Shown here: piece by piece, positions 43,838 through 58,657 of the stretch | Layout of the letters: every line of letters begins with the position of its first letter | How positions within the stretch are numbered: the first letter of the stretch is position 1 | From: a virus | Taxonomy: Duplodnaviria > Heunggongvirae > Uroviricota > Caudoviricetes | Strand: one strand, 5' to 3' | Virus record (IMG/VR): IMGVR_UViG_3300042259_000065 | DNA length: 64,000 nucleotides | Program-made: the position numbers and the translations under genes | Notes under the pieces: model-generated | Told to the model about the DNA's origin: nothing | The model's input: only the letters and a program-made list of their open reading frames with translations | The model's database searches: none

Positions 43838-45239
43838 TGAAAAGTTGCAGAGTGTTAATGATTTAATTGCTTCAGCATCAGTACCTTTGAATGAAAAACA
43901 ACAAATGTTTTTACACAAATTCATTTCAAGCAACAGGCATGGAATTCTCCAAGGTATTGCTGGTGTTGGAAAAGGGGAGATGATTAAACTTCTCAAAAAG
44001 TGGTATGGTGAAGAGTTAGCTGTTTTCTGTAGTACAGGGGTAGCTTCCCAAAACTTATCTTGCTCATATGGGACAGCACACGCTTATCTTTCACTACCAA
44101 TTAAACCTGCTACAGAGTATGACTACAAGAAAGTTTCTTCCAAATCTTCAGGTTTATTAGGTGGTTCAGATAAGATTAAGATTATTTTGATAGATGAAGC
44201 TTTCTTATTGAACTCTGATAATCTAGATGTTATTTGGAGGAGATTGGAAAGGTTTAATCGAAAATACCGTAAACGTAAGAAGCGTAATATTCGTTTAGTC
44301 TTGGTAGGTGATACAGGACAATCTGTAACTATTGCAGATGATGATTTGAAGGCTGAACTAAAATCTCGATGGGGTTCACATTTGATGTTTGAATCGTCTG
44401 TATGGGGTAGATTTAATTTTGAGTACTATGTTCTAGATAAAGTCGAGCGCCAAGAAGATAAAGTTTTCAAAGCTTGCCTTGATGTGATCAGATACAACCA
44501 GAAAGAACGTTTTGATAAATGCTTCAAGTGGTTAAATAAACGTCAAAGCAATCAATATAACCCTGAGTGGATTTATCTTGCAGCTACCAATAAACAAGTT
44601 GATAGTATTAACGAAAGTGTGTTAAACAATAACCCAAATGAAAAGTTTCATTTTCCTGCTTTAATACAAGGCGATTTCAATATCAAAGACACTTTGGTAA
44701 GAGAAAATGGGGTGACTATTTGTAAAGGTTTGAAAGTTATGACAATCACCAATGAAGAATATGGTAGATGGAGTAATGGTAGCACAGGAATTGTAACTCT
44801 TGCGGATAGTGAAGGTTGTTATATTAAGTTTGACCACTCAGGAAAAGAAGAATATGTAACTTTAAACGAATGGCAAAACAAAGAAGTCTACACAGAAGAT
44901 GTTGTTGATAAAGAATCTGGTGAAATCACAACCAAAGTTAAAGAGAAAATTCTTGGTTCTATGGTGTGTCTGCCTGTACTACCTAGTTCAAGTATTTCCA
45001 TTATGAAGTCACAAGGGCTTACAATTAGCACAGATTATATTATTGACCTTGGAGAAGATTACTTATACACTTGGAAAAAGATGGGAGACTTTGCGACAAA
45101 CTTTTTGTATCTTGGATTAAGTAGAGGTGTTGACATTAACAAAATTCACCTTAAACAGCAAGTTAAACCTTTTCATGTGAAAGTATCTGAGGAATCAATT
45201 AAATTTTGGAAATATTGTAAGGAGAAGAGTTTGATATGA
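43806..45239 (+). CDS. Dda/RecD-like SF1 helicase
   Basis: The Walker-A region GIAGVGKGEM, Walker-B-like ILIDEAF, and SIMKSQGLTIS (motif V/VI) are laid out as in T4 Dda. Confidence 0.6.
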   Translation: MTILWRRIVIDEKLQSVNDLIASASVPLNEKQQMFLHKFISSNRHGILQGIAGVGKGEMIKLLKKWYGEELAVFCSTGVASQNLSCSYGTAHAYLSLPIKPATEYDYKKVSSKSSGLLGGSDKIKIILIDEAFLLNSDNLDVIWRRLERFNRKYRKRKKRNIRLVLVGDTGQSVTIADDDLKAELKSRWGSHLMFESSVWGRFNFEYYVLDKVERQEDKVFKACLDVIRYNQKERFDKCFKWLNKRQSNQYNPEWIYLAATNKQVDSINESVLNNNPNEKFHFPALIQGDFNIKDTLVRENGVTICKGLKVMTITNEEYGRWSNGSTGIVTLADSEGCYIKFDHSGKEEYVTLNEWQNKEVYTEDVVDKESGEITTKVKEKILGSMVCLPVLPSSSISIMKSQGLTISTDYIIDLGEDYLYTWKKMGDFATNFLYLGLSRGVDINKIHLKQQVKPFHVKVSEESIKFWKYCKEKSLI

Positions 45240-45880
45240 GTAAAAGATTAGTTTTTGGGGTAGGCATAAACAATGCTGATTATAAACAGGAGGAAAGGAT
45301 TAGATGGAAAACTGAAGACGGTATTAATAAATCTAAACTTTTATGGCAATGTCCTTACCATTTAAAATGGCACAACATCTTACAAAGATGTTACTCTCCA
45401 GCCTATCATAAACTTAAGGAAACTTACAGGGATTGTTACATATGTGATGAATGGAAATTATTCTCAAACTTTAAGGCATGGATGGAATTACAAGATTGGG
45501 AGAATAAAGTGCTTGATAAAGATTTACTTATAGAGAATAATAAAGAGTATTCACCGGATACTTGTATCTTTATAAGCAGAGATTTAAATACATTCCTAAC
45601 CCTTAGTGATAAGACTAGAGGTAATTATCCTATAGGTGTGAACTATTACAGGTGGAATAATTCTTTCAGGGCGGGTATTTGTTATAAAGGTAAGTCTAAA
45701 AGTTTAGGATACTTTAGCACTCCAGAGGAAGCACATTTGCAATGGCAAAAAGCTAAATTGGATAGGGTTATAGAGTTTATAGATGATACAACAGAAGATA
45801 GAGTTCTATTCGGGTTGAATAGGATAAAATTAAAGTTAGAACACGACATTAAATATGGACTGGAGACTAAAGATTTATGA
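45236..45880 (+). CDS. Homing-endonuclease-like protein with AP2-type domain; paralog of 13692..14168
   Basis: LQRCYSPAYHKLKETYRDCYICDEWKLFSNFKAWM, then an AP2-like YKGKSKSLGYFSTPEEAHLQWQ. Confidence 0.5.
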   Translation: MSKRLVFGVGINNADYKQEERIRWKTEDGINKSKLLWQCPYHLKWHNILQRCYSPAYHKLKETYRDCYICDEWKLFSNFKAWMELQDWENKVLDKDLLIENNKEYSPDTCIFISRDLNTFLTLSDKTRGNYPIGVNYYRWNNSFRAGICYKGKSKSLGYFSTPEEAHLQWQKAKLDRVIEFIDDTTEDRVLFGLNRIKLKLEHDIKYGLETKDL

Positions 45881-47812: not shown

Positions 47813-47887
47813 GCAGGTGTGATGTAATGGAGAGCATATTTCTCTTCTAAAGAAATCGTCAGCGTTCGAATCGCTGCACCTGTACCA
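47813..47887 (+). tRNA. tRNA-Arg (anticodon TCT) with encoded CCA
   Basis: Hand-folded cloverleaf. The acceptor pairs gcaggtg with cacctgt (G-U first pair), the D-loop has GG, the anticodon stem pairs tttct with agaaa, the loop is cTTCTaa, and the T-arm is cagcg TTCGAAT cgctg. A discriminator A and CCA follow. Confidence 0.7.
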
Positions 47888-48126: not shown

Positions 48127-48201
48127 GGGTATGTAGCTCAGAGGCAGAGCAATTGGCTGTTAACCAATAGGTCGAGATTTCGAAATTCTCCATATCCGCC
48201 A
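48127..48201 (+). tRNA. tRNA-Asn (anticodon GTT) with encoded CCA
   Basis: The acceptor pairs gggtatg with catatcc, the D-arm is gctc agaggca gagc, the anticodon stem pairs attgg with ccaat, and the loop is cTGTTaa. The T-loop is TTCGAAA, with one T-T mismatch in the T-stem. A discriminator G and CCA follow. Confidence 0.65.
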
Positions 48202-49640: not shown

Positions 49641-50030
49641 ATGGCTACTAAGAAGCAAGTAGAAGCACGTAATCAGGAAAAGGAACGAGGTCGCCAACCA
49701 CGTCCAGCAGCAGGAAACTTTAAAAGTGTTTTGAATGCTATTCAACATGTTCAAGATAAAGTTCATGCCCAGACAGCTAAGGATTTGGAAGATTACTATT
49801 TGATGATGGAAGAACTTGCAAAAGGTAAAGGTGACTTTGCTAAAGCAGGTATTAAGGATCGTGTAATGGCGATTAAGTTTCATCTGGATATGGCAGATAA
49901 ATTCCTTAATGATTATTATGAAACTGAAGATGAAGAATCTTCTGAAAGTAACGAAACTTCTGAAAAAGTAGAATCTAAAGCAAATGGTACAAATGGTTTA
50001 ATTTGCCTAGATTTCAATTCTGAAGATTAA
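49641..50030 (+). CDS. Hypothetical acidic protein
   Basis: 129-aa ORF with an AGAGG RBS. Confidence 0.5.
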   Translation: MATKKQVEARNQEKERGRQPRPAAGNFKSVLNAIQHVQDKVHAQTAKDLEDYYLMMEELAKGKGDFAKAGIKDRVMAIKFHLDMADKFLNDYYETEDEESSESNETSEKVESKANGTNGLICLDFNSED

Positions 50031-50185: not shown

Positions 50186-50219
50186 AACCCCTTCCGTTTT
50201 GGAAGGGGTTTCTTTTATT
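50186..50219. terminator. Bidirectional rho-independent terminator between convergent blocks
   Basis: Perfect hairpin ccccttcc-gtttt-ggaagggg with T-tracts on both sides. Confidence 0.6.
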
Positions 50220-50222
50220 ATA

Positions 50223-50651
50223 TCAACGTAATTTTAAACTATGCTGTAAACGTTCTTCCATTTTATTAACAACATCTTCTGGAACATTGTGATTGTTCTT
50301 ATTACTGTGACGTTTTTCTATAATCAGACTTACAACTTTATATCCATAAGCATTAGCCATAGATGTATATGGTTTTAGTTCTTTTTCAGATGTCGATGTA
50401 TTATGAACCACAATATTAGCTACACCAGCATCCATACAAACCATAACACTGTCTTGACACCACTTATGAGCTAAATGAACATTTTCTGGTTTCCAATTAT
50501 AATTCCCTTGGTCATCATAATGAAAATCATCTGCTGCATATGCAATACAATCCTGTAAGGAAATTTCCAAGGTTTTAGCTAAAGTTGTCTTTCCGCTAGA
50601 TGGTAGTCCTCTTAGAATATATAAAGTTTTCTTAGTCATTTTATTCTCCAT
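50223..50651 (-). CDS. P-loop polynucleotide-kinase-like (5'-OH kinase) protein
   Basis: Walker A LRGLPSSGKTTLAKTL, and the size fits a stand-alone PNK kinase domain. The start was chosen at MENK (ATGGAGAATAA overlaps the Rnl1 stop). The track ORF starts at 50729 and would overlap Rnl1 by 89 nt. Confidence 0.55.
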   Translation of the reverse strand: MENKMTKKTLYILRGLPSSGKTTLAKTLEISLQDCIAYAADDFHYDDQGNYNWKPENVHLAHKWCQDSVMVCMDAGVANIVVHNTSTSEKELKPYTSMANAYGYKVVSLIIEKRHSNKNNHNVPEDVVNKMEERLQHSLKLR

Positions 50652-51534
50652 AATAATACCTCTCAATAAATTCTCGTCGTTGTTGATCATTATAAGAACG
50701 CCATACTTCCTTGTCAACATTTTCTGCAAGATAGTCTACGAACTCATAAAATTCTTCATCAATTCGTTGTTTAAACAAGTCTGGTTTATCAAACAAAATG
50801 TCCACTTTAGCTTTACCAAGACGCATAATTGCTTTCTTAGAGAGGTAGTGTGGTGATTTTAATTTACAAAGAACCTCTTCTGTGAAGTAATCCTTAACCA
50901 TATACCCCTCATGATTAACGTCAGTAGGTAGATCTTTAAATTTACCTACCCACAACTCACCACGCCTACATTCAGCAGCCTTGGATAGCCCATTTAGAAA
51001 ATATTCTGATGACATTTTACCTGTGTCATGATACCTACGTCCTATTAGATAAATACCTTCATTTTCCTCTACAATGTGAGGGTCACGTTTATCGCAAACT
51101 TCAAATATATGGGTAACACCTTCTTCATATAGAGCATCCTTGTTAATTGTTTCTAGCCACTCTTCACCAAGTTTAACATACTCAGAATCAAGACTTCCTG
51201 TTGTAGATACAATATAACCATAAGCTTTATTATAAGTTACAGAAAGCATATAACCGTTTACTTTACGAGGACAGATCACCACTTGCTCAGGGTCAACAGT
51301 TGTTCCATTATCACCAAAATTAAACACCTTACGGAAAGGCAGTACAATAACATTCCAAGCTTCATCTACAACAGTTCCTCGGCATTCAAGCAGTCGCTCG
51401 TCAATATGCCACAGATTATTGTAGAAAACCTTTCGATGATATTTAAGGACTGACAAACCTTTATATTTACCTTCGGTGTAAGTTTTCTTAATAACTAGAC
51501 CCTTTTCGATAAGGTCAGATACATCTAATTTCAT
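50641..51534 (-). CDS. RNA ligase, Rnl1-like
   Basis: LLECRGTVVDE matches T4 Rnl1 ALECRGIMFE; motif I RKVNGYMLSV matches KEDGSLVS; EGYMVKD...CKLKS matches EGYVAVMKDG..FKIKS. Confidence 0.7.
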   Translation of the reverse strand: MKLDVSDLIEKGLVIKKTYTEGKYKGLSVLKYHRKVFYNNLWHIDERLLECRGTVVDEAWNVIVLPFRKVFNFGDNGTTVDPEQVVICPRKVNGYMLSVTYNKAYGYIVSTTGSLDSEYVKLGEEWLETINKDALYEEGVTHIFEVCDKRDPHIVEENEGIYLIGRRYHDTGKMSSEYFLNGLSKAAECRRGELWVGKFKDLPTDVNHEGYMVKDYFTEEVLCKLKSPHYLSKKAIMRLGKAKVDILFDKPDLFKQRIDEEFYEFVDYLAENVDKEVWRSYNDQQRREFIERYYYGE

Positions 51535-51544
51535 ATTAGTTCTC

Positions 51545-52117
51545 CTAGTGTTGGTCAGGTGAATAAATTTCTTTCTTGTTAAGAATCTTCATAATTTCTT
51601 TAATGTTCTTAATTTCACCAAGATTATCATACCCAACATCAATTTGTCTACCTTTAGGTTCAGGAAGAGACCCGTGACAGTGGCCGAACAATTGTAAACT
51701 TCCCCGCCCAGCATTATTCCAAGTGGTGAGGGGGTAGTGGCATAGAACTACTTTTTGTTTATCAATCTGTATCTCAAGATAATCACCTTTCCAGACAATA
51801 CCAAACTTACCATCAGCAATACCATTACGTAGTGATTTGTCATGATTTCCATGGATCATAATTTTCTTACCATTCAAGCGTTGTAAGAAGCTACTTGTTA
51901 CCTCCACACCTTTAAAGCAGAAATCTCCAAGATGGATAATGTAATCTTCTGGTTTAACCTTAGTATTCCATTCGGTAATCAAAGCCTCATTCATGGAATT
52001 AGTCTTCTTGAAATTACGTGTTTTTGGACAGAAGTGTAAAATATTACCATGGTCAAAATGTAAATCACTTGTTACCCAAATATCTTGTTCTTCTGTGTTA
52101 AATTTTCTTCCAAACAT
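51545..52117 (-). CDS. Calcineurin-like metallophosphoesterase
   Basis: Motifs SDLHFDH, HLGDFCFKG, and MIHGNHD (DxH / GD / GNHD). Confidence 0.7.
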   Translation of the reverse strand: MFGRKFNTEEQDIWVTSDLHFDHGNILHFCPKTRNFKKTNSMNEALITEWNTKVKPEDYIIHLGDFCFKGVEVTSSFLQRLNGKKIMIHGNHDKSLRNGIADGKFGIVWKGDYLEIQIDKQKVVLCHYPLTTWNNAGRGSLQLFGHCHGSLPEPKGRQIDVGYDNLGEIKNIKEIMKILNKKEIYSPDQH

Positions 52118-52127
52118 TATTTACCTC

Positions 52128-52646
52128 TTAAAAATCTTTAAATTTATACAACAATTCCAATTGTGTAGAATACTTCCGTACACGTTTCACATCTGAAACC
52201 TTAATACTTTCTGTAAGATTAGAATAAGTATCTGCAACTTTAACTTTCCAAGCAAGTTCATCTTTTGATAGATTACGTAGATAATCTTTGTAAGATAATC
52301 CTTCTTTCTTGGTGACAAGATCAATTGCTTGTACAATCTCGGAGTCATAACCAGCTTCAAGTAAAGATTCCTTAGTAACATAAGTATCTTCATACAAATC
52401 GTGCCCAAGGGAAGCTGTAGCCAATTTCACATCTGCAATTGTAGGATTATGTATCTTACCTTCACCAAATAATTCATGTGCTTTCTCAGCAACCATACGT
52501 AGATGGTAAGTGTAGGGTTTGTCACCATACTTTTGTTCATGATGCGCTACAACAATAAGACTGCTCATCTTAGATTCAAAAGCTCTTAATTTATCCAATG
52601 TATAATTCACAATTATTCTCCTTTCTCCAAAATCTACACACATCAT
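52128..52646 (-). CDS. HD-domain phosphohydrolase
   Basis: VVAHHEQKYG...YHLRMV...LGHDLYEDT is an H..H...HD...D pattern. Confidence 0.5.
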   Translation of the reverse strand: MMCVDFGERRIIVNYTLDKLRAFESKMSSLIVVAHHEQKYGDKPYTYHLRMVAEKAHELFGEGKIHNPTIADVKLATASLGHDLYEDTYVTKESLLEAGYDSEIVQAIDLVTKKEGLSYKDYLRNLSKDELAWKVKVADTYSNLTESIKVSDVKRVRKYSTQLELLYKFKDF

Positions 52647-52692
52647 AACATCTGCTTTTCACAAATCAACTACTTTTATATAAAAATTATTG

Positions 52693-52721
52693 TTGACAAG
52701 GGTTGTTGTGGTTGGTAAAGT
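52693..52721 (+). promoter_or_regulatory. Sigma70-like promoter (TTGACA-17-TAAAGT) at the divergent junction
   Basis: ttgaca agggttgttgtggttgg taaagt sits upstream of an AGGAGA RBS and the ATG at 52748. Confidence 0.4.
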
Positions 52722-52747: not shown

Positions 52748-52942
52748 TTGAAGATGTTTAAAACCGTGGCAATATTTATCACAATGTGTCTGTACATTTT
52801 TGCAGGAGTTGTACTTCTTGCAAGTGTACCTTTTGTAGATAATCTAGTTAATTTAGTGATATTCTCACTTTGTGCATGTGGTTATGCTTGGGTGTCAAGT
52901 TGGTGGATTAAAAATGGTTGGTTTGATAAGGAGTTATTTTGA
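52748..52942 (+). CDS. Small membrane protein
   Basis: 64 aa, mostly hydrophobic. Confidence 0.4.
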   Translation: MKMFKTVAIFITMCLYIFAGVVLLASVPFVDNLVNLVIFSLCACGYAWVSSWWIKNGWFDKELF

Positions 52943-53151
52943 TGAAATCAAAAGGTGTTCTCTACAATGGTGCTATGTACAAAGTTCCAATGTGGGTTAA
53001 ATTTATGACTACAGATAATGATGGGACTGTTTTTGGTTGGTCACATAAACCTACACTTGACCATAAATTAAGTTGGATTGTAGATTCAGATATTGGTAAA
53101 GGTGATATTTTTGAACCTTACTATGTATTTGAGAAAATTGAGGAGGTTTGA
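52939..53151 (+). CDS. Hypothetical protein
   Basis: 70-aa ORF. Confidence 0.4.
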   Translation: MMKSKGVLYNGAMYKVPMWVKFMTTDNDGTVFGWSHKPTLDHKLSWIVDSDIGKGDIFEPYYVFEKIEEV

Positions 53152-53152
53152 T

Positions 53153-53791
53153 ATGATGTATAAACTGATGACAGACCCAAGAAAATTTAAACGTTCTGGT
53201 GCAAAGGTAAAAGTATCTGCTGAAAAAGTTATTGCTGTTGAAAACTATACTTATTCAAGAACCGTAGAACATCAAGGTAAGACTTATGATGTACAAACAG
53301 AAGTGTTTACCAAGAATGGTGAGATTGTCAAATACGAAAGCACATTTACACCAAGTAGTATTTGTTTAGATGAGTATGACTTTGATCACGATTTGACAAT
53401 TTGGGATTTAACACCAGAAGAGAGAGTTGGTGTAAAAAGTAAATTCTTTGGGCATGATATCCACATCTACAATGATATATGGGTTTTCTCTGATACATTA
53501 GAGCCTACTGAGACTACACATCACTCTCGTCCATGTGGACATTGTGGATTTATTCGTGGTGAAGATGATCATGACCCTTGCATCAAAAGCTTACCTTATG
53601 TGCTAAATGCTTGTTGTGGTCATGGTGACCAAGAATCAGCTTATGTGATGCTACAAGATAGAGAATGTTATTATGGTGAAGATGCTTTGCGATTGATTGA
53701 ATGGTTGAAACAAGAGAAAGTGTCACCACAAGCATTCAAACCTATTGAAGTCAGTCGAGCTTTAAGAAGTGAACGGAGGAAGCGTAAATGA
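53153..53791 (+). CDS. Hypothetical Cys/His-rich protein
   Basis: GGAGG precedes the ATG at 53153, internal to the track ORF 53093..53791. The motif is RPCGHCG...CCGHG. Confidence 0.45.
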   Translation: MMYKLMTDPRKFKRSGAKVKVSAEKVIAVENYTYSRTVEHQGKTYDVQTEVFTKNGEIVKYESTFTPSSICLDEYDFDHDLTIWDLTPEERVGVKSKFFGHDIHIYNDIWVFSDTLEPTETTHHSRPCGHCGFIRGEDDHDPCIKSLPYVLNACCGHGDQESAYVMLQDRECYYGEDALRLIEWLKQEKVSPQAFKPIEVSRALRSERRKRK

Positions 53792-54270
53792 AAATAATCT
53801 TCCTTGATATAGATGGTGTTTTGAATAGTGATTCTATATTAAGTGAATATATCTCTGAAATTGACGGAGAATATTACCCATATCAACCCCACCTTGTTGA
53901 TAACTTGAACATTATTCTTAAACGTACAGGTGCTAAGATTGTAGTATCTTCAACTTGGAGACTAGGGGAGTCTGTAGAAAGGTTGCAATATCTTCTGACA
54001 CATATGGGTGTTAAAGGTGAAGTGATTGGTAAAACGGATTCTTACAATGATAAGTTTGTTGTCAGAGGTAATGAAATTCTAAAATGGATTCAAGATAATG
54101 AAAGTTTATTTGGTTGTCATTATTATGATTTCTGTGATTATGTAATTCTTGACGATGATTCAGATATGTTATACAGTCAACGAAACAACTTTGTTCATAT
54201 ACAAGGTGAAGAAGGTTTGACGAAAGAGTACACTGAACAAGCAATTGAAATTTTAGGAGATGAATCATGA
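53788..54270 (+). CDS. HAD-like hydrolase
   Basis: MKIIFLDIDGVLNSD is a classic HAD motif I. Confidence 0.5.
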   Translation: MKIIFLDIDGVLNSDSILSEYISEIDGEYYPYQPHLVDNLNIILKRTGAKIVVSSTWRLGESVERLQYLLTHMGVKGEVIGKTDSYNDKFVVRGNEILKWIQDNESLFGCHYYDFCDYVILDDDSDMLYSQRNNFVHIQGEEGLTKEYTEQAIEILGDES

Positions 54271-55367: not shown

Positions 55368-56054
55368 GTGCTTATGGTGACAGTAAAATTAACCTTAAAA
55401 GAATCAGAATTGACTCAAGAATTACTTCATGAATGTTTCGAATACAATCCAGAAGGGTTTCTTATCTGGAAAGAACGTCCACTAAAACATTTTAAGAATG
55501 AAGGTAACCAAAAACGTTTTAATACACCTTGGGCTGGAAAGATTGCAGGTTATTACAATAAGAGAACTGATTCAAAACGTGACGATTTTGGTTATCATAT
55601 AGTAAGGATAACTTTGGAGAAATCACAAGGACTATTTAAATTACACAGATTGATATTCTTAATGCACCACGGATACCTTCCAGCTGTTGTCGATCACATA
55701 GACGGTAACTCAACTAATAACCGTATAGATAATTTAAGGGAAAGTTCTGTACAACAAAATAGTTGTAATCTGAAACTGAACATAAACAACACCTCTGGTT
55801 ATAAAGGTGTACATTCTATAAGGGAAGGTTTTTGGAGTGCACACATAAGGTCGAAAGGTGTAACCTATTATCTTGGTAGCTATAAAGAGAAGCACCTTGC
55901 AGCATACGCTTATAATTTAGCTGCTGAGGTCTTGCATAAAGAATTTGCATGTCTTAATGATATAGAAGAAGATGTATCGGATTTCGATTACTCTTCGAAA
56001 TTCTTTACTGAAATATACCCAACTCTTACAGGGGAGGTAATTTGTAATGGCTAA
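55368..56054 (+). CDS. HNH endonuclease with AP2 DNA-binding domain
   Basis: HNH core HHGYLPAVVDHIDGNSTNNRIDNLRES, then AP2-like YKGVHSIREGFWSAHIRSKGVTYYLGSYKEKHLAAYAYN. Confidence 0.7.
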   Translation: MLMVTVKLTLKESELTQELLHECFEYNPEGFLIWKERPLKHFKNEGNQKRFNTPWAGKIAGYYNKRTDSKRDDFGYHIVRITLEKSQGLFKLHRLIFLMHHGYLPAVVDHIDGNSTNNRIDNLRESSVQQNSCNLKLNINNTSGYKGVHSIREGFWSAHIRSKGVTYYLGSYKEKHLAAYAYNLAAEVLHKEFACLNDIEEDVSDFDYSSKFFTEIYPTLTGEVICNG

Positions 56055-56769
56055 GAAAGTTACACTAAAAGAAAAAGATTTAACACAGAAAATCGTAAAG
56101 GAATGTTTTGACTATCATGAGGATGGGTATTTAATTTGGAAAGACAGACCTGACTATCATTTTGCTAAACCTTCGAGTAAGAAAATCTACACTACGCAAA
56201 AGGTTGGTAAAAGGGCTGGTAGATGGCATAAGCGTACTGATAGAACAAAAGAAGGTTTTGGTTACTGGGTCACTAGCTTGACAATAGATGGAGAACTAGG
56301 AGCTTTCAAGTTACACAGATTGATATTCATGCGGCATCATGGATATTTTCCTGAAGTTGTAGACCATGTTGATAACGATACTGATAACAATAAAATAGAA
56401 AACCTTAGAGAATCTTCAAGTAAAACTAATATTTACAATATGTATAAACCAAAACACAATACATCTGGGTATAAAGGTGTAACAACTCTGTCAAAGATTA
56501 ATAAGTTTAGGGCAGAAATAACCTGTAAAAATGTTTGGTTTCATATGGGTCATTATGAAGATCCTAGAGATGCAGCCTGTGTTTATGATTATGTAGCACA
56601 ATTATTGTTTGGTGAGTTTGCTAGGACAAATTGTATTGAAGATAGAGTTTTTGAAGATTGTGTTAAAAAGAGCACTAAGTTCTATAGGGTTAAACTTCCC
56701 GAATTACTAAATGGTACTTTTGACTGGAGTGTTAACACAAACAGAAGAGGTATTAAAGAAGATGAGTAA
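56047..56769 (+). CDS. HNH endonuclease with AP2 DNA-binding domain; tandem paralog
   Basis: HHGYFPEVVDHVDNDTDNNKIENLRES, then YKGVTTLSKINKFRAEITCKNVWFHMGHYEDPRDAACVYD. Confidence 0.7.
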   Translation: MAKKVTLKEKDLTQKIVKECFDYHEDGYLIWKDRPDYHFAKPSSKKIYTTQKVGKRAGRWHKRTDRTKEGFGYWVTSLTIDGELGAFKLHRLIFMRHHGYFPEVVDHVDNDTDNNKIENLRESSSKTNIYNMYKPKHNTSGYKGVTTLSKINKFRAEITCKNVWFHMGHYEDPRDAACVYDYVAQLLFGEFARTNCIEDRVFEDCVKKSTKFYRVKLPELLNGTFDWSVNTNRRGIKEDE

Positions 56770-57142: not shown

Positions 57143-58657
57143 ATGATCCGGCAACACAAGAAATTGTGGAAAGAGAGTAACGTCTCTAAAATTGAACCCT
57201 TGGCTGGCGGGGGTAAGAGTTGGTCATTATTGGCTGACGCATTAAAATATGTAGACTGTCCTTATTTCTATGCAGTATTCTTCCGTAAAACTATTAAACA
57301 ATTAAGACGTACTTTATGGAAAGAAGCTAAGAAAATGTACATGCCATTACTTATTGATAAAAATGGTAAGTTTATTGGTCAAGCAAATATAAAAGAACAG
57401 GAAATGCTCATTAAATTTCCTACGGGTGCAACAATAGAATTCTCATATTTGGATAGGGATTCCGACGCTGAAATGAACTGGCAAGGTGCTGAATTAACAG
57501 CAGCTTATTTTGATGAGTTCACCCACTTCAGTGAATATAGTTTCAACTATATTCGAACTCGTATGCGTTCTAATAGTAAATACTCATCATTCATTCGATG
57601 TGGTATGAACCCACACGCTACCCATTTTTGTCACAAGTACCTAGACATCTTTCTCAGGGATGACGGGTTCGCAGAGAAAGAATTTTCAGGAAGACCTGCT
57701 TACTTTATTGTAGATCAAGGTCAAATTATTACATCTTGGGATAAAGAAGATCTATTAGCGAAGTACCCAAAGAAAAAACCACGTAAGTATACGTTTATAC
57801 CATCTTCTCTTGAGGATAACCCTTACATGTTATCTAAGAACGAAGATTATCGTGAAAATCTTGAAGCGAACGACCCTGCTAATGCTGCAATGTTGTTGGC
57901 AGGTAATTGGAAGTACCAGATTGCTGCAAATGGAATTTTTGAGCGGTCTAATGTAAGATCTTCACAGATTATTATGGAAAGGGATATGCCAACAGATTGT
58001 GTATATTATAGGGCGTATGATAAAGCATCTTCCGTACCTGCCAAAGAAGGGGGTGATAGTAAAACACTTGACCCTGATTATACATGTAGTATACTTTTTG
58101 CAAAATCTCCTTCTACTTCAAATATCTATGTACTTGGAAACTATATCAAAGATAAAGATACCAATCAACAAGTAGCTAGGTTCAGGAAGAAACCGGGTCC
58201 AAGGGATGAGTTGATTCGTGATCAATGTTTATTGGATATTGAGAATTATGGTGATAATGTGTATTGCCTGTTACCTAAGGACCCAGGCCAAGCAGGTGCC
58301 TCAGAACAGCAGCAAGCCATGAAGGAATTAAGTAAATATGGTATAAAAGTAAAGCCTGATCCGACACATGGCAACAAATCTAAACAGGTGAGATTTGAAC
58401 CTTTCTGTGTTCAGACTTATTCTGATAGTATCTATTGGGTAAAAGACACTTTTGATACTGCAGTGTGGGATTATATGCTTCTTGAATTGGAAAACTTTAA
58501 TCCTATAACTAAGAATAATGGTTTTCACGATGACTTAGTAGACTGTTTTTCAACAGCACATGCTGCTTGTGTTAATATCAAAACCCACAGACCAGTCCCT
58601 ATCCCAACAACATCTGTCCGCACAAAGTACCATGACATGAAAAAGTCTATGCGATAA
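57143..58657 (+). CDS. terL: Terminase large subunit
   Basis: Walker A LAGGGKSWSLL (GGxGxGKSW-type), Walker B AYFDEF, and a C-terminal nuclease-like region. 504 aa, immediately upstream of the portal. Confidence 0.75.
   Translation: MIRQHKKLWKESNVSKIEPLAGGGKSWSLLADALKYVDCPYFYAVFFRKTIKQLRRTLWKEAKKMYMPLLIDKNGKFIGQANIKEQEMLIKFPTGATIEFSYLDRDSDAEMNWQGAELTAAYFDEFTHFSEYSFNYIRTRMRSNSKYSSFIRCGMNPHATHFCHKYLDIFLRDDGFAEKEFSGRPAYFIVDQGQIITSWDKEDLLAKYPKKKPRKYTFIPSSLEDNPYMLSKNEDYRENLEANDPANAAMLLAGNWKYQIAANGIFERSNVRSSQIIMERDMPTDCVYYRAYDKASSVPAKEGGDSKTLDPDYTCSILFAKSPSTSNIYVLGNYIKDKDTNQQVARFRKKPGPRDELIRDQCLLDIENYGDNVYCLLPKDPGQAGASEQQQAMKELSKYGIKVKPDPTHGNKSKQVRFEPFCVQTYSDSIYWVKDTFDTAVWDYMLLELENFNPITKNNGFHDDLVDCFSTAHAACVNIKTHRPVPIPTTSVRTKYHDMKKSMR

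Follow-up and report, generated by a model that had tools for sequence, protein, structure and literature searches.

We analysed a 64,000-nucleotide (nt) stretch of DNA from a Vibrio-type phage (IMG/VR record IMGVR_UViG_3300042259_000065; hereafter the window), in which four packed minus-strand open reading frames (ORFs) form a cassette predicted to heal and seal broken RNA. In the direction of transcription they encode an HD-domain protein, a metallophosphoesterase (MPE), an RNA ligase and a P-loop kinase (Table 1). A preliminary description, made from the letters alone, had placed four leftward genes here, and all four are real, lie where it put them and share the minus strand. A search of PHROGs matched all four proteins strongly (phrog_990 at 4.7e-37, phrog_547 at 2.5e-53, phrog_562 at 1.6e-55 and phrog_2071 at 1.8e-51).

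The ligase scored 36.9 bits against Pfam RNA_lig_T4_1 (cut-off 28.3, E 4.5e-9). Sequence and profile searches matched it to no chain of the Protein Data Bank (PDB) at E up to 1, Pnkp ligase domains included, and its likeness to T4 Rnl1 surfaced only via Pfam, hhalign and fold search. The AlphaFold model (pLDDT 93.7, from a 25-sequence alignment) has T4 Rnl1 as its top PDB fold in Foldseek (5TT6, 2C5U and 9DO4; E 3e-11 to 2e-10, TMq 0.63–0.66), with fungal Trl1 ligase domains and archaeal Rnl3 coming next; matches to Rnl2 and Rnl5 (E above 1e-4) and to DNA ligases (E above 5e-4, TM below 0.4) were far weaker. In hhalign the ligase family aligned with T4 Rnl1 at 92.8% probability, pairing K91/G94, E145, E209-G210 and K224/K226 with K99/G102, E159, E227-G228 and K240/K242 of T4. 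The residues of motifs I, III, IV and V are invariant or nearly so in 25 homologues, and the Rnl1-specific upstream elements R52, K69 and F71 (R54, K75 and F77 in T4) are conserved. The Pfam score, the top fold and the aligned catalytic residues thus bear out the earlier call of an Rnl1-like enzyme. Judged by motifs and model, this is a short, motif-complete, Rnl1-like ATP-dependent RNA ligase, composed of a nucleotidyltransferase domain and a helical C-terminal domain, without a T4-like tRNA-specificity domain.

The kinase matched Pfam AAA_33 above the curated cut-off (E 5e-10). Full-length matches of its family profile in the PDB were Pnkp1 (5.7e-8), T4 Pnk (7.9e-8), PSTK (5e-7) and CthPnk (8e-6), and the AlphaFold model (pLDDT 89) comes closest in fold to T4 Pnk (TM 0.79–0.81), then to CthPnk (0.76) and Pnkp1. 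The P-loop (G11-x4-G16-K17-T18) and D37, which lies within a DD[FY] motif and aligns with Asp35 of T4 Pnk, are invariant or nearly so in two family alignments. As judged from the ORF and Pfam, the 138-aa protein consists of the kinase domain only, with no fused 3'-phosphatase domain of the T4 Pnk type. The closest structures being T4 and Clostridium polynucleotide kinases, the preliminary assignment to stand-alone PNK-like P-loop kinases is upheld, and we predict that the protein is a stand-alone polynucleotide 5'-OH kinase.

The MPE, described beforehand as calcineurin-type, indeed scored above the curated cut-off of Pfam Metallophos (E 1e-8) and carries the full set of metal-binding motifs, whose ligands are invariant (D18, H20, G64-D65, G90-N91-H92, H127 and G145-H146-x-H148). 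Its family profile, run against the PDB at E up to 0.1, matched GpdQ, 6UNC, YfcE and, at 8.6e-23, 1XM7 (Aquifex aq_1665), the sole strong solved relative; neither the CthPnkp phosphatase nor lambda phosphatase was found. By its profile matches the MPE is a binuclear metallophosphoesterase of the uncharacterised aq_1665 family, outside the Pnkp/lambda-phosphatase clade. The claim that the phosphoesterase works as in bacterial Pnkp/Hen1 systems must therefore be read as an analogy and not as family membership, because the profile misses both the CthPnkp and lambda enzymes. Literature searches on aq_1665/COG4186, or on the cassette ligase family, found no characterisation. We predict that the MPE heals 2',3'-cyclic-phosphate or 3'-phosphate ends. 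An identity as PdeM, a ligase-associated enzyme, was considered and rejected (NCBIfam, 20 bits against a cut-off of 150, E 3.4e-4).

As a single sequence the HD protein stayed below the cut-off of Pfam HD (E 0.029), and one distant homologue carries Pfam HD_4. The best PDB match of its family profile is the (p)ppApp hydrolase Aph1 (7SMG, 1.8e-18, full length), followed by PaSAH (6YVC and 6Z3N, ~1e-14); further matches were Rel/RelA, SpoT and Mesh1 (1e-9 to 4e-4 for Rel/RelA/Mesh1). Across 21 homologues H23, H36, D71, E74-D75, K101, D127 and N131 are invariant and H70 nearly so, and the protein has the complete RSH motif set (H..H, HDxxED, TK and KxxDxxxN). The HD hydrolase had been suspected of being a cyclic phosphodiesterase; it instead classes, by profile and motifs, as a small alarmone hydrolase of the SpoT/Mesh1/Aph1 type, and is predicted to be a nucleotide or RNA 3'-pyrophosphohydrolase. 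An HD-Pnk-like 2',3'-cyclic phosphodiesterase was rejected because all significant PDB matches are RSH hydrolases.

We then compared the locus with other genomes. Phage records with a member of the ligase family number 610, and the family comprises 459 representative clusters at E up to 1e-30. At 71 non-redundant viral ligase loci, with the MPE counted within 8 kb of the ligase, the MPE was found at 56, the kinase at 53 (59 with iterated profiles) and both at 47. MPE, ligase and kinase genes lie nearly always on the same strand, and their order varies: MPE-ligase-kinase at 16 loci, kinase-ligase-MPE at 11 and HD-MPE-ligase-kinase at nine, the window's own locus included. An HD gene stands beside the triad at 12–14 of the 71 loci, in five arrangements. 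Cultured phages with the module include VnaP, whose ligase is 68% identical to that of the window, and phiPsa267 (Otagovirus), PAK_P1 (Pakpunavirus) and ime (Vequintavirus), at 41–47% identity. The MPE of phiPsa267 is annotated as a 'MutT/nudix' phosphohydrolase, probably a mis-annotation.

The same enzymes are also found joined. Chromosomes of Moraxella, Kingella, Neisseria, Cardiobacteriaceae and Pasteurellaceae encode kinase-ligase fusions of ~508 aa, followed by an MPE of the same family, and this MPE family is present at 36 of the 46 bacterial fusion loci; phage-like sequences have kinase-ligase fusions too, and fusions in the order ligase-kinase also exist. Metagenomic proteins of 700–812 aa (P0223, P0233, P0244, P0256 and P0266) combine an AAA_33 kinase, a Metallophos domain and an Rnl1-like ligase in a Pnkp-like order, the ligase domain being close to the window ligase (E 1e-64 to 1e-70) and the MPE domain belonging to a different subfamily. 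A few genes away from the fusion of Moraxella osloensis lie two ORFs for RlaP RNA-repair nucleotidyltransferases, and also genes for a TerD/vWA-TerF protein and a UvrD helicase.

A replacement of the module was seen in the related Vibrio phage vB_CoeS_P1. Its slot is flanked by a homologue of the HD gene and by one of the rightward ORF 49641–50030, which in the window lies beyond the kinase gene, and is filled by a T4-type kinase + HAD_PNKP enzyme and another Rnl1-like ligase (locus L001, 3050–5490: HD alarmone hydrolase, 327-aa ligase 29% identical to that of the window, kinase-HAD_PNKP). We read this slot, from its gene content, as a natural replacement in which the MPE and the kinase of the window would do the job of Pnk.

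A further candidate phosphatase gene was missed by the preliminary description, which had assigned phosphate removal to the MPE and not to a HAD domain. The divergent operon beside the cassette encodes a HAD_SAK_2 protein (Table 1), a HAD phosphatase of a family annotated as serving RNA repair, which scored 96.7 bits against a cut-off of 27.5 and contains the motifs FLDIDGV (DxD) and ILDDD. At several further viral loci its homologues adjoin the ligase, one such order being kinase-ligase-HAD_SAK_2-MPE. HAD_SAK_2 is a probable accessory enzyme of the same island, removing 3' or 2' phosphates.

Taken together, the set of genes, their catalytic motifs and folds, their conserved linkage, the fusions and the replaced module suggest that the locus is probably a phage island for the reversal of damage to RNA, most likely tRNA attacked by host defences, with a three-enzyme heal-and-seal core made of separate polypeptides. 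End healing and sealing by MPE, ligase and kinase, as proposed beforehand, is in line with the motifs, the T4 Rnl1 and T4 Pnk folds, the linkage, the fusions and the swap with a T4-type Pnk. To judge by the chemistry of its family and by gene linkage, the MPE would remove the cyclic or 3' phosphate to leave a 3'-OH, perhaps with help from the nearby HAD_SAK_2 phosphatase. The PNK-like kinase, by homology, would phosphorylate the 5'-OH with Asp37 as general base, and the ligase, given its conserved Rnl1 catalytic residues, would be adenylylated on Lys91, activate the 5'-phosphate and seal the break. The HD enzyme most likely takes a 3'-pyrophosphate off (p)ppGpp/(p)ppApp, or else off the CCA ends of tRNA modified by toxSAS (CapRel-type) defences, and would thereby contribute damage reversal of a second kind.

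A close parallel to such a core is the T4 response to PrrC, in which Pnk (pseT) and Rnl1 (gp63) follow the same logic of a 5'-OH kinase, a 3'-end phosphoesterase and an Rnl1-type ligase. The window ligase shares with gp63 the fold and 10 of the 11 residues that we take, from published mutagenesis, to be essential, and the window kinase shares with T4 Pnk the fold, the P-loop and the catalytic Asp. The two systems differ in that the window enzymes are separate polypeptides only 18–20% identical in sequence to those of T4, and in that the phosphatase is a binuclear MPE, not a DxDxT HAD domain. Pnkp/Hen1 of Clostridium thermocellum acts on breaks that leave a 2',3'-cyclic-phosphate on one side and a 5'-OH on the other by means of a kinase, a binuclear metallophosphoesterase and an adenylyltransferase ligase (PMC2190708, PMC3675462). 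This is a similar enzyme set, whose domain order the 700–812-aa proteins join with a window-type ligase domain; in contrast, the window MPE falls outside the Pnkp clade and the window ligase has no PDB match, Pnkp included. No Hen1-like methyltransferase was found among the four cassette and ten flanking proteins scanned.

Several observations weigh against the heal-and-seal reading or its extension to tRNA. In the ligase, Lys119 of T4 Rnl1 is replaced by Thr112, within a conserved STTG block. The ligase is also shorter (297 aa versus 374 aa), its C-terminal helical region comprising ~68 aa versus ~120 aa in T4 (residues ~255–374), and this domain aligns with T4 at its start only, the alignment ending near T4 residue 270. 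In T4 Rnl1 the C-terminal domain is the source of tRNA specificity; because that of the window ligase is short and dissimilar, tRNA as the substrate is something that we infer. The kinase lacks a counterpart of T4 Pnk Arg38, the position being His or variable, and has no invariant lid Arg at the position equivalent to T4 R126; most members have R110, and the residue that is invariant is His117. 1XM7, the only solved relative of the MPE, has no assigned function, and the literature searched yields no experiment on any member of the ligase, MPE or kinase family. As to the HD protein, it is linked to the triad at only ~17–20% of the loci, and has no counterparts of the Aph1 specificity residues D24 and R119 (PMC10083569). 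Aph1 D24 falls in a two-residue insertion and, counted from the conserved Gln, would correspond to the invariant Tyr28 of the HD family, while R119 falls within an insertion missing from that family; the substrate preference of the HD protein is therefore not readable from these positions. Finally, the HD..MPE..ligase-kinase cluster of PAK_P1 and phiPsa267 lies just upstream of genes for ribose-phosphate pyrophosphokinase and nicotinamide phosphoribosyltransferase (NAD salvage), neighbours that fit a mixed counter-defence island as well as a single pathway.

A mixed island of this kind is the main rival explanation. It holds that the ligase and kinase repair RNA, and that the MPE and HD protein act independently on small molecules that serve as immune signals or alarmones, such as cyclic nucleotides and (p)ppGpp/(p)ppApp, being merely co-located and co-expressed. 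Besides the NAD-salvage neighbours, it draws on the homology of the HD protein to alarmone hydrolases, on the lack of a characterised member in the MPE family, and on the published reading of the HD homologue of Pakpunavirus as an alarmone hydrolase and nothing else (PMC12846349). For the MPE, however, it has to account for the company that this enzyme keeps with the ligase, at most of the phage loci, and with the kinase-ligase fusion, which it directly follows at most of the bacterial ones, for the kinase-Metallophos-ligase fusions (though their MPE domain is of another subfamily), and for vB_CoeS_P1, where MPE and kinase are exchanged jointly for a Pnk combining kinase and HAD phosphatase. 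We consider this explanation unlikely, and an independent small-molecule role less probable for the MPE than for the HD protein.

The preferred reading, damage reversal by a three-enzyme core, can be extended in the opposite direction. In the extended version the HD protein would be an integral fourth step of tRNA repair, stripping the 3'-pyrophosphate added by CapRel/toxSAS from the tRNA CCA end, while breaks in the anticodon loop would fall to MPE, kinase and ligase (with HAD_SAK_2), so that one operon reverses two chemically different tRNA lesions, and the aq_1665-type MPE would represent a new class of RNA 2',3'-end-healing enzymes. We put this forward tentatively and consider it rather unlikely. 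Phage alarmone hydrolases have a precedent, which counts in favour of the main reading: those of Salmonella phage SSU5 (PaSpo) and of PVP-SE1 (PbcSpo) neutralise all toxSAS toxins tested, including those that pyrophosphorylate tRNA (PMC7229694), and the SSU5 enzyme takes off the tRNA pyrophosphate added by FaRel2 (bioRxiv 10.1101/2024.07.05.602228). Like Aph1, these enzymes belong to the same RSH-hydrolase HD fold family as the window protein. The window HD profile matches a protein of Seunavirus, the genus of PVP-SE1, at 2.5e-21, the comparison having been made with this Seunavirus protein; identity is low (~31%, and weaker to Aph1). The literature examined on phage alarmone hydrolases makes no mention of their linkage to an RNA ligase module. 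Seunavirus was dropped as linkage evidence, as the 'RNA ligase' near its alarmone hydrolase gene misses the profile of the window ligase family.

It is also conceivable, in line with the RNA-modifying alternative that the preliminary description itself had raised, that the cassette serves RNA processing and not repair, maturing or joining phage or host RNAs in normal infection (tRNA, intron-related RNA, RNA circularisation). In favour are the two phage tRNA genes at a distance of 2 kb, the abundance of homing endonuclease genes around the cassette, and the roles in RNA processing of Rnl3 and Trl1, which figure among the fold matches of the ligase. Against this, an Rfam scan of the window detected the two intact tRNAs only, with no intron-like or other structured RNA; the module is optional and swapped among related phages, as is typical of accessory counter-defence genes; and its bacterial form is found alongside RlaP repair nucleotidyltransferases. 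We regard RNA processing as improbable.

Cleaning and sealing of nicks or breaks in phage genome DNA is very improbable. T4 Pnk-type kinases do act on DNA as well (structures with single-stranded DNA are among the fold matches), the MPE has its weak NCBIfam match to PdeM, and a UvrD helicase gene lies near a bacterial fusion; yet the ligase matches the Rnl1, Trl1 and Rnl3 folds far better than DNA ligases, the PdeM score is far under its cut-off, and related phages have separate DNA ligase genes nearby. Tail-fibre attachment, the second activity of T4 gp63, is hardly credible, as it enters through an inherited database name only ('RNA ligase and tail fiber protein attachment catalyst'), while the ligase family is fused to kinases, resides in bacterial chromosomes, is linked to end-healing enzymes and not to tail genes, and spans phages of many morphologies.

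The preliminary description had seen in the cassette a distinct system. This does not agree with the distribution of the triad, which is widespread, or with the earlier annotation of its homologues (PMC12846349, PMC7824862). VnaP, Pakpunavirus (PAK_P1 and Adele), Otagovirus and Vequintavirus carry orthologous MPE, ligase and kinase genes, and in Otagovirus and Pakpunavirus the HD gene is likewise upstream, giving the same layout. For phage Adele, published annotation assigns the kinase and ligase homologues to tRNA repair and takes the HD homologue for a small alarmone hydrolase, noting that the Pakpunavirus kinase homologue lacks a phosphatase domain (PMC12846349). Polynucleotide kinases and phosphoesterases are described as accompanying ATP-grasp RNA ligases in phages, and calcineurin-like and HD-like phosphatases have been noted in phage RNA repair (PMC7824862). 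The window differs from the cultured phages in having one compact operon, with gaps of 1–10 nt, and a divergently transcribed HAD_SAK_2 gene, whereas the cultured phages have small ORFs interspersed and, in Vequintavirus, MPE and kinase genes divergent from the ligase gene. Related systems, termed 'Swiss Army Knife' and RlaP-associated RNA repair, were predicted by Burroughs & Aravind in 2016, as cited in PMC7824862 and PMC12776372. The HAD_SAK_2 protein of the window and the bacterial kinase-ligase fusion a few genes from RlaP resemble them; in contrast to these systems, the window yielded no RlaP gene, and searches of it outside the cassette also found no T4-type Pnk and no paralogue of the four cassette genes. 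The cassette is thus a compact example of a module already known and computationally predicted. The present analysis adds the conserved internal promoter-like site described below, the family assignment of the MPE, the fusion and swap evidence and the HAD_SAK_2 neighbour.

The window itself brings no new principle. The kinase-phosphoesterase-ligase module is among the commonest accessory sets carried by large lytic phages that infect Vibrio, Pseudomonas, Escherichia and Klebsiella, candidates for therapy included, and is also found fused in the chromosomes of Moraxellaceae and Neisseriaceae. If the proposed function is true, it would provide a role for a large uncharacterised metallophosphoesterase family, of which 1XM7 is the only solved structure, would define a minimal Rnl1-type ligase, and would help to explain how these phages escape tRNA-cutting defences such as the PrrC, RloC, PARIS and retron types. 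Defences that pyrophosphorylate tRNA (CapRel) could in addition be evaded by means of the alarmone hydrolase.

Table 1. Coordinates of the cassette genes and of associated features in the window
Feature	Coordinates	Strand	Size, start or elements	Evidence or position
HD protein gene	52128..52610	minus	160 aa from GTG 52610; mechanically called ORF extends to ATG 52646	PDB profile matches, RSH motifs
MPE gene	51545..52117	minus	190 aa	Pfam Metallophos, phrog_547
Ligase gene	50641..51534	minus	297 aa	Pfam RNA_lig_T4_1, fold
Kinase gene	50223..50639	minus	138 aa; 142 aa if ATG 50651; mechanically called ORF 50223–50729	AAA_33, fold
Hairpin terminator	50186..50210		stem AACCCCTTCC/GGAAGGGGTT	between the convergent kinase gene and rightward ORF 49641–50030
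Divergent promoter region (candidate)	52642..52721		minus TTGATT-16-TATGAT (52669..52642); plus TTGACA-17-TAAAGT (52693..52721)	
Internal promoter (candidate)	50689..50717	minus	TTGACA-17-TATAAT	12/12 sigma-70, within ligase 3' end
HAD_SAK_2 phosphatase gene	53788..54270	plus	160 aa	divergent operon, 1.1 kb from cassette; PF18143 E 2e-27

The cassette genes are separated by 10, 10 and 1 nt, and a Shine–Dalgarno sequence precedes each start. The HD protein most likely starts at GTG 52610, as this codon is preceded by the ribosome-binding site AAAGGAG, homologues have 147–170 aa, and one database protein with 99% identity has 160 aa; a minus-strand -10 hexamer overlaps the upstream ATG of the mechanically called ORF. 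The kinase gene has two candidate in-frame starts, ATG 50651 and ATG 50639, both with a Shine–Dalgarno sequence, and the latter is favoured because homologues mostly have 136–139 aa. The sequence ATGGAGAATAA, from which translational coupling of ligase and kinase had been suggested, does span the ligase stop codon, and coupling is plausible on the basis of the gene spacing.

Promoter-like sites, identified as consensus matches, point both ways from the region upstream of the HD gene, at 52642–52669 on the minus and 52693–52721 on the plus strand, and both carry a TG extension, consistent with the divergent promoter region proposed earlier. Simple co-transcription of the four genes is complicated by another promoter-like site, ~40 nt upstream of the kinase start, which is the sole 12/12 sigma-70 match in the 64-kb window. 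Sites matching at 11/12 lie at the homologous offset in VnaP and in locus L033, and at 10/12 at similar offsets in L010 and L041; 1.5% of random 170-nt windows score at least 11/12. The kinase gene may thus have its own promoter within the 3' end of the ligase gene. On the other side of the kinase gene, the perfect bidirectional terminator of the preliminary description proved overstated: the hairpin stem is perfect (10–11 bp, -18.5 kcal/mol, z = -4.08), but the T-tract is strong on the plus strand only (TCTTTTATTA), the tail on the operon (minus) strand being a weak GTGTTTG.

Next to the cassette, on the plus strand, small ORFs separate the divergent promoter from the HAD_SAK_2 gene; they form a variable insertion (52939–53791) with a 70-aa ORF and an ORF for a Cys-rich protein of 212–232 aa (CGHCG...CCGHG), neither of which has a Pfam or PHROG family. 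Both are absent from the 97%-identical IMG/VR contig L003, whose corresponding intergenic region has ~800 nt of unrelated sequence at another place. The Cys-rich ORF (53093–53791) was considered as a cassette member and rejected, as it has no family and no homologue in related loci and is missing from that contig. A repeat scan of the window gave nothing meaningful.

The two phage tRNA genes, for Arg(TCT) and Asn(GTT), lie ~2 kb from the cassette on the plus strand (47813–47887 and 48127–48201). Anticodon nucleases of the colicin D and colicin E5 types have tRNA-Arg and tRNA-Asn as targets. Tandem HNH homing-endonuclease genes (55368–56054 and 56047–56769, plus strand) are situated directly upstream of the large terminase gene (57143–58657, plus strand), with a further HNH gene at 45236–45880; the annotation of the relative VnaP splits the terminase into four pieces, next to a GIY-YIG gene.

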